This document shows, piece after piece, positions 30,001 through 39,000 of a stretch of 64,000 nt of DNA. Made by a program: the position numbers. Source of the DNA: Chthonomonadales bacterium (lineage in GTDB: Bacteria; Armatimonadota; Chthonomonadetes; Chthonomonadales; CAJBBX01); contig JBBIPC010000008.1 of the NCBI GenBank assembly GCA_037443035.1, positions 73,426 to 137,425 of the forward strand, given 5' to 3'. Positions within the stretch are counted from its first letter, which is position 1. Every line of letters starts with the position of its first letter.

Positions 30001-33000
30001 TGCCACGTTCCTCTACTCGGAAATCACGGGGATCCGCTGAATACGTGCGTCCGTGAACACGTCGCTCTCGTCTCGACTAGTCGTGGAGAACTCCGACACG
30101 ATAGCACCGCCGGGCCCTGCCTGGAACCAGTGCAGTGTGTTCGGCTCCAATGTGTACTGCTGACCTGGCTCCAGCACGATCTCGTGAAAGACGGTGTAAG
30201 CCCCCTCCGGCGCAGGTGGAGGCGCGCACTTCGGGTTAGGAGTGGGTTCGCCGGGGACGTAGAGATACACCACACCCCAGCGGCATCGGAAGGTCTCCTC
30301 CTTGCCTGGTTCGCCTTCTACCGGCGGATGTCGGTGCTCGGGGCATGTTTGGTGGGGAAAGAGGACTAGCTCCTTGGCGCAGCACCTCTTCGTGTTCACG
30401 TAGGTCACGATCTCCAGACCAGTTCGGTCCAGCTCCCCAAGACCGAAGTCGGCCACCTCGATATTGCGAGATTCTTCCGGAGTCAGCACGATGCCGGCCT
30501 GCTGCAGGTACTCCCGTGCTCTTGCCCGAGCGGTCTCCAGTTCCGCATGAGTGATCATTGCATATGCCTCCTTCACGCCAGCACCCTGAGCCTTCAGGCT
30601 GCAGGGAAGCCCATTTCTTCTACGTAGACGTCCTGGAATCGCGGATCTTCGTTCAGTCCCACGTGTACAGTTATGTTCCGAATGCCTTCGTAGGTGTTCG
30701 TCTGAGGATCCGGGTTGAAGAGGGCTATCTTCGCACCGAGCAACGCCGTATTGCCCGCGGGCACGACCCTCTCCAGCGGTATCTGAAGCAGACCGATCCG
30801 GCGAGCGCTGGTTCGATCCACGTAGTTGCCGAACGCGCCAGCCATATACAGCTTACCCACATCGTCGAATGTGGCACCCCACTGCTCCAGCAAGAGGCGT
30901 ATGCCAGCCGCGATCGCCCCCTTTGCCAGTTGAAGCTGCCGTATGTCGGTCTGGGTCAGCGAGACCGGGCCGCACAGGTTCCAGGTATCCCCGCTCGTGA
31001 GGCGACCTGTGGGCTTCACCATGCCCGTATCGAGTCCTACTGCCACTGCATCCACAAGGCCGCTACCGCAGATGCCCCTGGGCTCCGTGTTGCCGAGGAT
31101 CTCGCAATGGATGTGGCCGTTACGGCCTGTCACCTTCCAGATCGCTCCGGAAGCGGCTCGCATACCCGCTGATATGCGCGCACCCTCGAATGCTGGACCC
31201 GCCGCCGTGGAGGCGCACAGCAGTCGGTGACCGTCCGATAGTACGATTTCTCCGTTCGTGCCCAGGTCCACGAGCATGTCGAGTTGGCCTGTCTTGTGGA
31301 CACCTGTCGCGAGAATGCCTGCCAGCACATCGCTACCAACGAAGCTTCCGAGGCACGGGAGGAATTGAACCAGCACCGAATCTGGGATGCTCCAACCCAG
31401 TTCGTCGGGCCGCAACACCTGCAGGCCGCCATGCTCCGTCTCGAACGGGTAGTGGGAAAGCGGTGTGAGGTCGATGCCGCAGAACAGGTGGTGCATCACC
31501 GTATTGCCGACCAGGACCACGCGGCGCAGCCTGTTCGTGTCGGCTGCCGACGCCTCGAAGAGGAGACGGATCAAGCGTGCGACCTCGTGCCGAATGAGAT
31601 CCCGGAGGATCACGAGACCTCCCTCGGACACGGCGTACTGCACTCGGCTCATGACGTCGGCGCCGTGGCGCGCCTGAGGATTGAGGGCAGTTTTCACGCC
31701 AAGTACATGACCCGTCTCGAGGTCGAGGAGCTGAGCGACGACCGTCGTCGTGCCTACGTCCACAGCCACGCCGAGACCTTCGGACGGTACGAAGGCGAAC
31801 GTCCCTTCGTCAGTGAGAATGGCCGCGTCCCACTGACGCAGTTCTATGACCAAGTCCTGCTCGACTCTGCACTGGCATGCCAGGCGCCACCCCGCAGCGA
31901 GCTCCACATCGGACAAGTGCTCTCGCTGGGCGTCGTTGATAGAGGCGTCTCCTTCGATTAGCCGTATCTTGCAGCCGCGACAGCGGCCGTTGCCGCCACA
32001 TGGAAACTCCACCCCATGTTCGAAGAGGAAGTCCCGCATGGGTGTACCGTGGGGAACCACCACAGTAGCGTTGATGGGCTGAAGGCGAACGGTGTGCTTC
32101 GTTACTTCACTCAAGATGTCATACTCCGGATGGCCTTGGCTCCGCCGGGTAGGTGTTCCCTCGCATAGCGGACCATGGCACGGACATTCTCGTGGGGTGT
32201 GTCGCGCGGCACTTCGCAACCAGCGCCTACGATGTAACGGGGACCGGCCTCGAGATGGCAGCTCTGGATGGCGGCGAAGACGTCCTCCGGCTTCCGGTCG
32301 CGTAGTACGCGAACGGGATCTATGTTACCTAGCAGCACTTGATATTCCCCCATAGCGGCGCGGCCCTCAGCCATGGAAGATGGGTAGTCCAGATCTATAA
32401 TCTCCGCGCCCGTCATGCCCATACCCCGCAGGATCCGACGCGTGTTGCCACAAATGTGGAGACGGACGAGTGCCCCCATGGCGTGGACTGCTGCCACCAT
32501 GCGCTTCTCGTAGGGAAGCACGAACTCCTCGTAGATGCGTGGGCCGACCAGCGAAGCAGCAGCGTCGCCGATCCCGATGATGTCCGCACCCGCCTGAACC
32601 TGCTTCTCGGCGAAGGCTATCTCGAGCTCCAGCACATACTCGAACAGCTCCCGAACGAACGTCGGGTCATCGGAGAAGTCTGTCATGAGATTGCCAATAC
32701 CGCGCAGATCAGCGGCTTCTGCGCACGGCCCTTCGATCCAGCCCTCGAGGATCTTGTCCCGACCAACCATCGCCTTCAGCAGAGAGATGGCCTCCAAGCG
32801 GTCCGTCATGCGCGTTCCGCAGACAGTCCTTGGGTCCGGGAGCTGTAGGAGAAGGCTCTTGTCCGCGAGGAGGGGATTGGCCCCATCCATCGCTGGGGGC
32901 GTGTCCTCTTCGATGACAACCGAAGCTCCAAGGTCTCCTGCCTCGCGAGCCGGATCGGAGATCGCGCTCACGTAATCGAAGTCGAAGACTTCGGCCACCC

Positions 33001-36000: not shown

Positions 36001-39000
36001 TGCCGCCAACCTGGCTTATCTCATCTACGACGAGCCGGACCTATTCTCTGAGATGGTGAATACGCTCTGTGACTTGTTCGTCGCAGTGCTGGAACCGGCA
36101 CTGAAGGAGATAGAGGTGGATCTGGCATGGGGCTGGGAGGACATCTGCTTCAACAACGGCCCCCTCATCGGTCCCAACCTATGGCGCAACTACGTGTCCG
36201 AACCCATGACGCGTGTGTGCAAGCTCCTACGCCGGCACGGGGTGGACATCATCTTGACCGACTGTGACGGGAATGTGCAGGCTCTGGCGCCGGTCTGGCT
36301 GGAATGCGGTCTGAACGGCATGTTCCCGTGCGAGGTGGCCGGTGGCTCGGACCCAGTACTGCTCCGGAAGCAACTTGGCAAGGATGCGGTTCTGTTCGGT
36401 GGCGTCAATAAGCGCATGCTCACCAGCAAAGAGGATATCCTCGCCGAGCTGCGCCGCCTGACGCCCCTCGTCGAGGAGGGAGGGTACATACCGTTCGTGG
36501 ATCATCGGATCCCCGGCTACGTCTCCTACGAGAATCATCGTTACTATGAGCGTGAGAAGTTAGCCATGCTGGGGTTCAGCAAGGAGGAAGTGGAAGCCAT
36601 CGAACCCCTGCGTGGCATGCCAGAACCGACTCTGAAGTCGGTCTATGGTTAGGATGTCATATTAGTGCTGTATCGAGGAGGTGCATCAGGCATGGACGAC
36701 AGTACACGGATGACGCGGCGAGAGGTGCTGGGGGTAGCCGCCGGCGCGGTAGGTGTGCTCGGTCTGCCAGCCTCTGCTTGGGGGCGCATCCTGGGCGCGA
36801 ACGAGGACATTCGCGTGGCGGTTGTAGGTTTCCGCGGTCGTGGCGGCAGCCACATTGGCGCGTTCAGCAACATGCAGGGCGTCCGGGTTGTGGCTCTCTG
36901 CGACTGCGACGAGACTGTACTGAACCGTGGGGTGAAGGCGCTGCAAGATAAGGGCGTGTCTGTGGACGGCTACACGGACGTTCGCAAGGTGCTGGAGCGC
37001 AAGGACGTAGACGTCATCGCCACAGCTACGCCAAACCATTGGCACTCGCTGATCACCGTCTGGGCGTGCCAGGCGGGCAAGGATGTGTACGTCGAGAAGC
37101 CTGTGTCTCACAACGTGTGGGAAGGGCGGCAAGCCGTGTTGGCGGCGCGCAAGTACCGGCGCATCGTGCAGGCTGGGACGCAAGGACGATCGAGCGGGGC
37201 ATGGCGGGAGGCATGGGCCTGGCTGGCAGAAGGCCATATCGGCAAGATCCAGATCGCTCGGGGGCTCTGCTACAAGCGGCGCGACAGTATCGGCAAAGTG
37301 GATGGACCTCAGCCGATACCGGAAGGAGTGGATTATGACTTGTGGTGCGGTCCCGCGGAAAAGCTGCCTCTCATGCGGAAGAACCTGCACTACGATTGGC
37401 ACTGGGTTTGGAACACGGGCAATGGAGACCTAGGCAACCAGGGCATCCACCAGATGGATATCGCTCGCTGGTCACTGGGCAAGATGGAGCTCGCGCATCG
37501 GGTGATCAGTATCGGCGGTCGCCTCGGCTATGTGGATGACGGAGAGACTGCCAACACACAACTGGTGGTTCTGGACTGGCCGGACGCGCGCATCATCTTC
37601 GAAGTACGCGGCCTGCCCGAGCGATCGGGCTCCAACGCCATGGATAGGTATCGCGGCGAGGGTGTCGGCAACGTCATCGAGTGCGAAGGGGGACACATAG
37701 CCGGTAACCGAGCCTACGACAAAGACGGCAAACTCATGAAGGAGTTCACCGGTCAGGGGTTCCGAGGGGGAGATCATTTCGCGAACTTCATCGAGGCGGT
37801 CCGCAGCCGCAAAGTGGAGGATCTGAACGCCGATATCCTCGAAGGACATCTTTCCAGCGCTCTCTGCCACCTGGGCAACATCTCCTACCGGCTGGGCCGG
37901 CAGGCCGATCCCGAGGAAGTACGTGCGGCCGTCGCAACTGACGCAGCCGCCGCGGAGACGCTGTCGCGCATGGAGGAGCACCTCGCGCGCAATGGTGTGG
38001 ACCTCGGGAGAAGCCGCCTGACGGTCGGAATTCCCTTGCGTGTGGATCCAAAGCGAGAACGTTTCGTCGGCAACCGGCAGGCCGATGCGCTCTTGACCCG
38101 TCGGTACCGACCAGGCTTCGAGGTGCCCGCGCGGGTGTAGATGATGCTCCTGCCGATCATCGTGGCGCTGATCGCCAGTCAGACGCCTCGTCCTGCATCC
38201 TGGCAGAACCTGTTCGACGGCAGGTCATTCCACGGCTGGACCAATACTGAGGGAAGCCCAGTAGGCAAGGGATGGATCATCGAGGATGGTTGCATCAGGC
38301 GCGTGTCGACAGGTGCCATGGACATCATCACGACGCGTGTCTTCCGTGATTTCGAGCTAGAGCTGGAATGGAAGCTCCGTCCTGGAAGCAACAGCGGCAT
38401 CAAGTACCGATTGCACCGAATGCCGGACGGCAAGTGGCTCGGGCCGGAGTATCAGATCATGGACGATCGCGTCCCACCGGAACCTGTCCACAAAGGGAGC
38501 TGCGGCGCACTTTACTCCATCAAGGAGCCGCGCGCCGACGTGCGGCAGAGACCTCCCGGAGAGTGGAACCGGACGCGGATCGTGGCTCGGGGCGGTCACA
38601 TCGAGCATTGGCTCAACGGTCGGAAGCTCCTAGAGATGGACCAGGATACGCCGGAGTGGACTGAACGCCTCGACAAGAGTAAGTTCGCTGCTTACGATGG
38701 CTACCGCGTGTGGTTTGCCCGTACACCAGGCCCCATCCTCCTGCAGGACCACGGCGGGAGCGTCTGGTTTCGCCGCATACGCATTCGTGAACTGGCGCCG
38801 CCAGAAGCCGGTCCGGTGACGTCGGTGCCCTCGAGACCCGGACCACGTACCGAAACCCCAAGTGGAGGACGGTGAAATGTCTTGGGATGCTGCAGTAGAA
38901 GACCTCTTCCGAGCAGTTCTTGGGGCGCTCTGCCTGACGTTGGCAGGGATGGCCTCGAGCGCGCCTGTGATGAAGGCCCAAGTGGCCGCGGACGGGCAGG

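Follow-up and report, generated by a model that had tools for sequence, protein, structure and literature searches.

Why does one bacterial genome carry tens of proteins of the uroporphyrinogen decarboxylase (URO-D) fold, and what could they share with a single corrinoid reductive activase? The window analysed here, a stretch of 64,000 nucleotides, holds the activase gene and two of the URO-D genes. An earlier note had proposed a corrinoid-dependent methyltransferase battery with one carrier and one activase, directed at methylated sugars. A phylum-wide profile supports the core of that claim well, and we consider it very likely that about 35 URO-D enzymes pull methyl groups off various substrates onto one shared B12 protein. 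For a demethylase battery with carbohydrate-type substrates, taken as a whole, we put the probability at roughly 0.5.

Results

The RACo operon and its surroundings

The RACo/RACE activase gene (30594..32114, minus strand) encodes 506 residues comprising a 2Fe-2S domain, a RACo middle domain and an ASKHA C-terminal domain (PF14574, E = 4.6e-66; PF17651; PF00111). It is the sole copy in the genome and matches the AcsV and RamA models, both below their cut-offs. Its start overlaps the stop of an upstream gene for an MtaA/CmuA-like URO-D-fold protein (32111..33157, minus strand; PF01208, E = 7e-57; TIGR01463, 160 bits), which begins with an ATG at 33157 and whose 348-residue product contains His234-x-Cys236...Cys314. 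This protein is a candidate S/Se-methyltransferase, either MT2-like or a methylthio-demethylase. Orthologues lie near RACo in genomes G145 and G136, and within the corrinoid cluster of G049. The operon closes, 35 bases past the RACo stop and in the same direction, with a cupin of the D-lyxose isomerase family (30013..30558, minus strand; PF07385, E = 6e-9); any functional tie to the methyl system is hypothetical.

On the plus strand lies a GFO/IDH/MocA oxidoreductase (33289..34737; PF01408/PF19051) with a twin-arginine-like N-terminus, as read off the translation; it is probably a neighbour and not part of the methyl system. Next comes a divergent URO-D gene of the D-x-D...D-H class (35483..36652, plus strand; PF01208, E = 3.3e-8). 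Its product of 389 residues has W218-E219-D220, D260-C261-D262-G263 and D340-H341, all invariant among 106 homologues, and its predicted model (pLDDT 96.7) retrieves URO-D and MtaA structures at TM 0.54-0.59 and 13-16% identity. We regard it as a candidate O-demethylase (methyltransferase I, MT I). A second GFO/IDH/MocA oxidoreductase (36692..38140, plus strand; PF01408/PF19051), co-directional and 39 bases downstream, is a possible operon partner and is followed by a 3-keto-disaccharide hydrolase (PF06439). This order does not recur at loci L072 and L073, the closest two of the outside relatives.

A divergent URO-D family without HemE

The claimed expansion is real. A genome search returned 32 URO-D matches and a local profile four more; hmmscan matches PF01208 to 34 of the 36 aligned paralogues, and a 37th is located at C2:258895, besides three remote candidates. 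None is a hemE, as had been stated: RQAGR, which we take to be the N-terminal HemE motif, occurs in 0 of 36, and TIGR01464, never above its cut-off, touches only two (best E = 8.5e-20, 71 bits against 303). Ferrochelatase was not found in the genome. Nearest-paralogue identity, previously given as a median of 35% (27-64%), recomputes to 32% (21-64%), and the divergence itself stands.

By alignment, H-x-C...C is present in exactly three of 36, the number claimed earlier: 32111..33157, C17:12419 and C19:58436. Twelve have H-x-C with H, N, D or G as the partner residue, where about 13 with H/N had been counted, and six belong to the D-x-D...D-H class. The MtaA/CmuA subfamily model TIGR01463 matches 24 of 36; none reaches the curated cut-off of 235 bits, including the best member, 32111..33157, at 160 bits. 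Similarity to CdmB exists at superfamily level only (profile E = 4e-18). A His-Cys-Cys site has been linked to S/Se transfer, and carboxylate or non-coordinating substitutions to O-methyltransferases (PMC10418091). The S/Se-methyltransferase class (SCMT, Mlp) was rejected for the set as a whole, the His-Cys-Cys zinc site being confined to 3 of 36; the 33 paralogues without it count for a demethylase battery.

The carrier and its operon

The single stand-alone corrinoid protein (C6:164806-165444; PF02310+PF02607) has an invariant DLHDIG. Carrier and activase are thus each single-copy, in line with the earlier note. With a stand-alone corrinoid protein bearing D-x-H-x-x-G and a reductive activase, the genome has two hallmarks of a three-component corrinoid demethylase. 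Further B12-binding matches are the MetH and the radical SAM protein already listed, plus a second match, below cut-off, in a radical SAM gene that the list had lacked. Three URO-D paralogues lie inside the corrinoid operon, and about 33 of the 37 URO-D genes are situated away from corrinoid-system genes.

The same operon encodes MtaB, a stand-alone homocysteine (Hcy) S-methyltransferase and a DUF1638 protein, partners absent from the earlier note. The mtaB gene is directly behind the MtaC-like corrinoid gene. Its product matches PF12176 above cut-off (E = 1.4e-156), scores 387 bits against the methanogen equivalog cut-off of 720, thus under it, and retains by alignment the Glu/Cys/Cys positions of 2i2x, presumably zinc ligands. 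The folate acceptor proposed earlier is unsupported: the genome has only two pterin-binding matches, one within MetH and one read as FolP, neither a stand-alone MT II; the MT II query, which finds a match in 50 relatives, gave none here, and Fhs and ACS were not found. A thiol acceptor, the earlier note's other proposal, is possible (either homocysteine or, through the three His-Cys-Cys proteins, sulfide), but the phylum profile favours MtaB as the MT II counterpart.

The URO-D expansion follows RACo

Does the expansion depend on the corrinoid system? We profiled 151 genomes of the host phylum, 93 with and 58 without RACo, scoring URO-D matches on at most about 12 candidates per genome. All 93 RACo-positive genomes have at least three matches (a first look gave 5-96 candidates, with a median of 30), whereas 47 of the 58 RACo-negative ones have none and 11 have 1-3 with a HemE-like best match. 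A stand-alone corrinoid protein, usually in one copy, occurs in 92 of 93 versus 0 of 58. A single shared carrier, which the earlier note called unusual, is the norm in this phylum; MT I enzymes that share a carrier and an MT II have been described (PMC13391211). The split even divides genus g58, with four RACo-positive members (18-27 candidates) and four RACo-negative ones (3-4). At the margin, G128, where no RACo was found, has three URO-D matches, equal to RACo-positive G100.

The host carries a heme-copper oxidase, which bears out the aerobic respiratory chain noted before. Among 87 oxidase-bearing genomes, 33 are RACo-positive and expanded and 54 are neither; the system also occurs in 60 oxidase-lacking genomes. 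Its label 'oxygen-independent' follows from the chemistry. Corrinoid-system genes adjoin relatives of the D-x-D gene 35483..36652 in five genomes of the phylum and, across phyla, at 10 of 80 loci; this largely answers the concern that paralogues with Asp/His sites have nothing to do with methyl transfer. That the paralogues are corrinoid-dependent and use one common carrier is, in our judgement, highly probable.

MtaB and MT II seldom occur together

How do methyl groups leave the carrier? Among the 93 RACo-positive genomes, which are kin, 38 have MtaB only, 45 MT II only, five both (ten if five Hcy-MT-pterin fusions of family f18 are counted as MT II) and five neither, a complementarity that comes down to 29 families and a few within-family swaps (in f27 and f32). 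Thus 38 of the 43 genomes without MT II have MtaB, against 5 of the 50 with it. In the same order of classes, the counts are 27/5/0/5 where MetH is present and 11/40/5/0 where it is not. Hcy methyltransferase is present in both classes (37 of 38 MtaB-only and 38 of 45 MT II-only genomes) and is therefore not the substitute for MT II. Acetogens have mtaB and MT II in one operon (PMC13391211); because the two are nearly exclusive in this phylum, we propose a reverse role for MtaB. Its near-exclusivity with MT II suggests, at somewhat less than even odds, that MtaB is the main exit and hydrolyses methyl-corrinoid to methanol, although a pair of alternative inputs would account for the complementarity as well as a pair of exits.

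MtaB could instead be an ordinary methanol input, with methyl groups leaving via homocysteine as methionine, or via the His-Cys-Cys proteins to sulfide or thiols. This reading, compatible with the battery, seems rather unlikely to us. The literature consulted does know MtaB only as a methanol-activating MT I, 85 of the 93 RACo-positive genomes have Hcy methyltransferase, and the five genomes with neither MtaB nor MT II include G136 and G049, both with Hcy methyltransferase and, in the corrinoid operon, an orthologue of 32111..33157, the His-Cys-Cys gene. An optional input, however, should be independent of MT II or favour it, which is not the distribution seen, and methionine demand is presumably limited.

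Sugar genes near the paralogues

Are the substrates sugars? Sugar markers were tallied within two genes of each paralogue, and by hand for a random-gene set of the same genome. Any marker is near 16 of 36 paralogues versus 14 of 34 random genes, and a glycoside hydrolase near 7 of 36 versus 6 of 34; 20 of 36 lack any sugar marker close by. The statement that most paralogues sit next to glycoside hydrolases, GFO and DUF6785 genes is therefore not confirmed overall, the context being at chance level, but enrichment holds for GFO (8/36; 2.7 expected) and DUF6785 (5/36; 0.8 expected), and seven of 36 have either as immediate co-directional neighbour (0.95 expected). As sugar genes are no more frequent beside the paralogues than beside random genes, support for a sugar substrate is weaker than the earlier note claimed. 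Two further observations count against it: DUF6785 is a family without known function, and the window GFO proteins look exported, whereas no signal peptide is present in the URO-D proteins.

What sustains the sugar claim, besides these GFO/DUF6785 operon neighbours, is gene order. The host genome has co-directional runs of DUF6785-URO-D-GH106 and GFO-URO-D-GH116; loci L097 and L111 have URO-D, corrinoid protein and galactokinase in order, and L132 and L149 place three URO-D genes around an alpha-L-fucosidase. Against the claim, a strict sugar enzyme is the nearest unlabelled co-directional neighbour in only 12 of 80 outside loci, a raw count with no null. We would call it an even bet that a good part of the paralogues act on carbohydrates.

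The same demethylase battery might mostly serve aryl methyl ethers, methylthio or methylseleno compounds or other small methylated molecules, which we judge unlikely. Known URO-D-fold MT I substrates are methoxylated aromatics and haloalkanes (PMC13222342) and methyl-selenium/sulfur compounds (PMC10418091). All characterised URO-D-fold O-demethylases in the literature consulted act on aryl methyl ethers, and our literature search found no corrinoid-dependent sugar demethylase. Alkyl ethers are poorer leaving groups than aryl ones. The chance-level sugar context and the three His-Cys-Cys paralogues point the same way; the galactokinase and fucosidase operons elsewhere, the host's GH106 and GH116 runs and the GFO/DUF6785 enrichment argue for carbohydrates.

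Discussion

The chemistry, direction and substrates proposed here are read from gene inventory, fold, motifs, co-occurrence, gene order and complementarity. Each paralogue would be a substrate-specific MT I that binds a distinct methylated compound in its cytoplasmic URO-D barrel and hands CH3+ to cob(I)alamin on the C6 corrinoid protein, with the single RACo re-reducing oxidised cobalt. At least a subset would demethylate sugars or cyclitols that carry O-methyl groups and are taken up from glycans, so that the sugar can be catabolised. As the genome has no folate exit, methyl-corrinoid would go partly to homocysteine via the stand-alone methyltransferase and chiefly to MtaB running backwards (CH3-Co(III) + H2O -> methanol + Co(I)); the net reaction would be hydrolysis of the ether, redox-neutral and oxygen-independent. 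Folate MT II, often adjoining Fhs, would serve the relatives that lack MtaB. In its fullest form, an undescribed, widespread corrinoid 'methyl-ether hydrolase' for sugars with dozens of URO-D MT I enzymes, one B12 protein and a reverse MtaB yielding methanol, the proposal is tentative and its odds are well below even.

Does the system remove methyl groups or install them? We think demethylation likely. In the opposite direction, methanol (through MtaB) or methyl-THF (through MT II) would load the corrinoid, and the URO-D proteins and Hcy methyltransferase would methylate acceptors without SAM. This would explain the complementarity equally well. Full-length MetH was not found in 45 of 50 MT II-positive genomes, so that MT II, corrinoid protein and Hcy methyltransferase may form a split MetH; the nearest named models are MT2 enzymes (TIGR01463), and a few paralogues adjoin glycosyltransferase or epimerase genes (C2:103042, C10:14317). 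Yet MT II adjoins Fhs in 12 genomes and in G146 is accompanied by MetF, Fhs and URO-D genes, a methyl-oxidising arrangement; the linked genes include importers, kinases and hydrolases, and cells with full MetH would depend on outside methanol as sole donor. We hold the methylating direction to be quite improbable. Least probable of all, most paralogues would be corrinoid-independent barrel enzymes (decarboxylases, dehydratases, other metal enzymes) that share a lifestyle with RACo: HemE structures rank as high as MtaA in the fold search, the sites are heterogeneous, some without any His or Cys, and most of the genes lie apart from the corrinoid system, but the 58 RACo-negative genomes, 54 with an oxidase, show no expansion, one genus splits by RACo, the class least like MtaA has links to corrinoid genes, and CdmB is a metal-free URO-D barrel and nevertheless an MT I.

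Like the OdmB, VdmB, MtvB, MtoB and CdmB systems of anaerobes (PMC13222342), the proposed battery combines URO-D-superfamily MT I, a small corrinoid protein and a RACE/RACo activase. Unlike them, it disperses about 35 MT I candidates away from one carrier, folate MT II, Fhs and ACS were not found, the host has a heme-copper oxidase, and alkyl (sugar) ethers are proposed as substrates. Type 1 mlp gene clusters, reported from obligate anaerobes only, comprise two or more Mlps along with a corrinoid protein and Ram, co-directional and within 2 kb (Kountz and Balskus, PMC10418091). That assignment was rejected: RACo is on contig C8 and the corrinoid gene on C6, MtaB is present, and clustered Mlps are almost invariably His-Cys-Cys, against 3 of 36 here. 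The placement of MtaB behind an MtaC-like corrinoid gene, with key positions kept, recalls MtaABC of acetogens and methanogens (2i2x; PMC13391211), except that acetogens co-encode MtaB and MT II. A similarly large and divergent (about 30% identity) set of MT I candidates in one genome is the 82 mttB genes of strain DCMF (PMC6778437), whose products belong to another fold family and use amines, in a host that is strictly anaerobic.

In both gut and ocean, O-methyl sugars have been called recalcitrant, and the sole carbohydrate-demethylating route described in the work consulted is a P450 (PMC6292453). That 6-O-methyl-D-galactose demethylase would share the job of unmasking methylated sugars, but it is an unrelated, oxygen-dependent protein that releases formaldehyde. 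If the proposal is right, 'uroporphyrinogen decarboxylase' annotations, tens per genome in 93 of 151 phylum genomes, would be re-read as a demethylase toolkit, and glycan degraders could free sugars of their methyl groups with no need for oxygen, folate or the Wood-Ljungdahl pathway. They would be an unrecognised methanol source, and mtaB would mark methanol producers in these genomes, not methylotrophs, which would change how mtaB is read in metagenomes. The MtaB/MT II complementarity predicts methanol excretion by MtaB-type cells and, in those of the MT II type, oxidation of the methyl group to formate. Beyond the phylum, relatives occur in Planctomycetota, Chloroflexota, Poribacteria, Latescibacterota and others.

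Inventory of the URO-D paralogues

How large and how diverse is the set of uroporphyrinogen-decarboxylase/MtaA-fold (URO-D) genes in the host genome (3.76 Mb, 100% complete)? A genome search returned 32 matches, and a local profile added four, including the window gene at 35483-36652. The earlier note had listed 34 such genes without a HemE, and both statements hold: 34 of the 36 paralogues match PF01208 and none is HemE. By the membership tests of these families, the paralogues fall outside both HemE and MtaA/CmuA. A profile search of the genome located a 37th paralogue at C2:258895 and three remote candidates; all tallies given here cover the other 36. 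Identity to the nearest paralogue ranges from 21 to 64% (median 32%). In the alignment of the 36, the third-ligand pattern is His-Cys-Cys in three proteins, His-Cys followed by H, N, D or G in 12, D-x-D...D-H in six and mixed in the rest. In a quick tree of the 36 paralogues, otherwise mostly unresolved, the six D-x-D proteins group in a single supported clade. ESM Atlas matches comprise solely URO-D-domain clusters of unknown function.

Two of these motif classes occur in the window, which spans C8:73426-137425. The His-Cys-Cys paralogue at 32111-33157 (minus strand) belongs to a tight run with the corrinoid reductive activase RACo (30594-32114, minus strand), which occupies the middle, and a lyxose-isomerase-like gene on the same strand as the third member. 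The D-x-D paralogue at 35483-36652 (plus strand) lies upstream of a GFO/IDH/MocA oxidoreductase (GFO) gene. The structure predicted for this paralogue (pLDDT 96.7) has the URO-D/MtaA barrel fold, at 13-16% identity to solved members. Its closest named relatives, 78-85% identical, are Chthonomonadaceae records, which makes Armatimonadota the very likely phylum of the host.

The three remote candidates, at C26:15615, C9:113485 and C5:94096, are proteins of 390-440 aa that resemble the URO-D profile weakly (E 1e-8 to 1e-11) and match no Pfam family at 1e-8; they are possibly a further remote subfamily. At C17:80757-83037 and C12:71668-75700, URO-D paralogues adjoin a nickel-insertion (LarC-like) gene and lie near an AIR-carboxylase-like (LarB-like) gene.

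Probable corrinoid dependence across the phylum

We profiled one sample of 151 genomes from the phylum, each at least 90% complete. RACo occurs in 93, all of which have at least three URO-D matches and most at least about 12; first-look URO-D candidates, a proxy, reach a median of 30 and a maximum of 96 in these genomes. Of the 58 genomes without RACo, 47 have no URO-D match and 11 have one to three, HemE-like as judged on the best match, with extra matches in four of the 11. A stand-alone corrinoid protein, mostly in single copy, is found in 92/93 RACo-positive versus 0/58 RACo-negative genomes, a count that drops four further, MetH-length matches in the latter. P-values of the co-occurrence tests, here and for the methyl exit below, overstate the case, since the genomes are kin and not independent. 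An anaerobic lifestyle as the sole cause is ruled out, because the same split recurs among the 87 oxidase-bearing genomes; it also recurs inside genus g58. In four genomes (G004, G090, G020 and G013) corrinoid and RACo genes lie side by side and the retrieved stretch holds no URO-D gene, which fits a shared module.

Does this link extend to the D-x-D class, the least MtaA-like? Proteins 36-41% identical to 35483-36652 are encoded in corrinoid operons of five genomes (G100, G136, G118, G049 and G146), and among 80 loci of its relatives outside the phylum, 10 have corrinoid-system genes alongside, which ties this class to the corrinoid system as well. PMC10418091 associates His-Cys-Cys with S/Se transfer and carboxylate or non-coordinating substitutions with O-methyltransferases; CdmB functions without zinc. 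We conclude that a phylum-wide battery of corrinoid-linked methyltransferases with one common carrier is real. We put the probability that the URO-D battery is corrinoid-dependent at roughly 85%; its members are probably demethylases.

At locus L045 of G118, in G036 and in family f18, MtaB, the methanol:corrinoid methyltransferase, adjoins a URO-D-corrinoid fusion of roughly 600 aa, and a 580-aa homocysteine (Hcy)-methyltransferase-pterin fusion replaces full MetH in f18 genomes.

The corrinoid operon and cofactor supply of the host

The key corrinoid locus of the host lies outside the window, on contig C6, where successive genes encode a ferredoxin, the corrinoid protein, MtaB (E 1e-156), two URO-D proteins, a stand-alone Hcy S-methyltransferase, a DUF1638 protein, an unknown product, another URO-D protein and a GFO. 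The single RACo and single stand-alone corrinoid protein of the earlier note are borne out; its account of the system left the MtaB and Hcy enzyme of this operon unmentioned. No stand-alone pterin-binding folate methyltransferase (MT II), Fhs or ACS was found in the genome. The battery would operate as the three-component corrinoid demethylases do, except at the MT II step, and the system falls outside the type 1 mlp cluster by the tests for that type. The operon includes a 247-aa gene (L001:3655-4398; C6:158654-159397), 80% identical in genome G061, with no Pfam or NCBIfam match.

CobS was not found in the genome, and its single cobalamin riboswitch lies ahead of genes read from their translations as solute-binding proteins, so B12 is probably taken up. 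The riboswitch (L152; C4:148076-150866) is directly 5' of a prepilin-type N-methylation gene and two solute-binding-protein-like genes, a hint that the abundant prepilin-like proteins may take part in solute uptake. The host encodes a heme-copper oxidase. A divergent HemE among the paralogues has no support, and in this 100% complete genome, as in G061, an oxidase is present, yet HemE, ferrochelatase and AhbAB were not found; heme would come either from uptake or from an unrecognised route. Two Pup-ligase-family genes near each other (L070; C20:46473-59393) indicate a pupylation-like system in the lineage.

Possible exit of the methyl group

Of the 93 RACo-positive genomes, 38 have only MtaB, 45 only folate MT II, five both and five neither, and neither enzyme was found in the 58 RACo-negative genomes. 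An MT II call required a match of E 2e-47 or lower in a short frame, which 50 genomes have; five fusions of 580 aa were set aside, as were 15 matches of MetH length. The corresponding counts (MtaB only/MT II only/both/neither) are 27/5/0/5 in MetH-positive and 11/40/5/0 in MetH-negative genomes, and the two enzymes swap inside families f27 and f32. Since they replace each other, we read MtaB as filling the exit slot, where it would hydrolyse methyl-corrinoid to methanol. Release of the methyl group as methanol is the simplest reading, and is new and testable. MtaB is reportedly reversible, with the standard free energy of its forward direction put at about -7 kJ/mol by Sauer and Thauer in 1997. 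An oxidase is present in 27/43 MtaB-type versus 3/50 MT II-type genomes, which fits cells without need for Fhs-derived ATP. MT II adjoins Fhs in 12 genomes, and in G146 its neighbours are MetF, Fhs and five URO-D genes. Acetogens, according to PMC13391211, encode MtaB and MT II together, whereas in this phylum one replaces the other. No reverse role for MtaB was found in the literature outside most subscription journals.

Could the pattern arise otherwise? MtaB and MT II as two alternative inputs would give the same pattern, and the five RACo-positive genomes with neither enzyme count against the MtaB exit. MT II may also be part of a split MetH, in keeping with the presence of MetH in only 5/50 MT II genomes. 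Fhs is complementary to MtaB too (both 20, MtaB only 23, Fhs only 46, neither 4 of 93), but also occurs in 27/58 RACo-negative genomes, and we therefore chose MT II as the counterpart of MtaB. The Hcy methyltransferase as an MT II substitute is ruled out by its occurrence in both classes, and ACS/Wood-Ljungdahl as an explanation by the presence of ACS in only 27/151 genomes.

Substrates and gene neighbourhood

Is the battery devoted to sugars? The earlier note had placed most URO-D genes in glycan loci, which proved overstated. We tallied by hand, within two genes, glycoside hydrolases, GFO, DUF6785, sugar kinases, sugar-binding proteins, RhaT, xylose-isomerase-like barrels, 3-keto-disaccharide hydrolases, sulfatases and lyxose isomerases, with random genes of the same genome as control (17/18 random regions scanned). 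A marker lies near 16/36 paralogues versus 14/34 random genes, and a glycoside hydrolase near 7/36 versus 6/34; this matched control rules out glycan-locus enrichment as a general property. Neighbouring PhyH and sulfatase genes are not enriched either, the PhyH profile recovering its three seeds only.

A subset of paralogues is nevertheless coupled to GFO or DUF6785 beyond chance: with 63 GFO and 20 DUF6785 genes in the genome, one of them is the immediate co-directional neighbour of 7/36 paralogues against 0.95 expected, as in the DUF6785-URO-D-GH106 run on contig C32. Two Chloroflexota loci carry URO-D, corrinoid protein and galactokinase in order, three URO-D genes surround a fucosidase in two loci outside the phylum, and a strict sugar enzyme is a neighbour in 12/80 outside loci, a raw count without a null. 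The odds that a good part of the battery acts on carbohydrate substrates appear even to us; in part, it probably serves methylated sugars. A corrinoid-dependent sugar demethylase was not found in the literature, most subscription journals lying beyond the search, and relatives of these genes could be among the clusters and homologues in the supplementary lists of PMC10418091 and PMC13222342.

The plus-strand genes at 33289-41270 encode a 3-keto-disaccharide hydrolase and three GFO proteins whose N-termini are twin-arginine-like; they are probably an exported 3-ketoglycoside pathway with the URO-D gene inserted in it. The adjoining minus-strand run at 41294-52747 encodes, as read from translations, an ABC ATPase, a small permease, a small hypothetical protein, a membrane protein of 680 aa and, at 1,630 aa, what looks like a fusion between a peptidase and an ABC permease.
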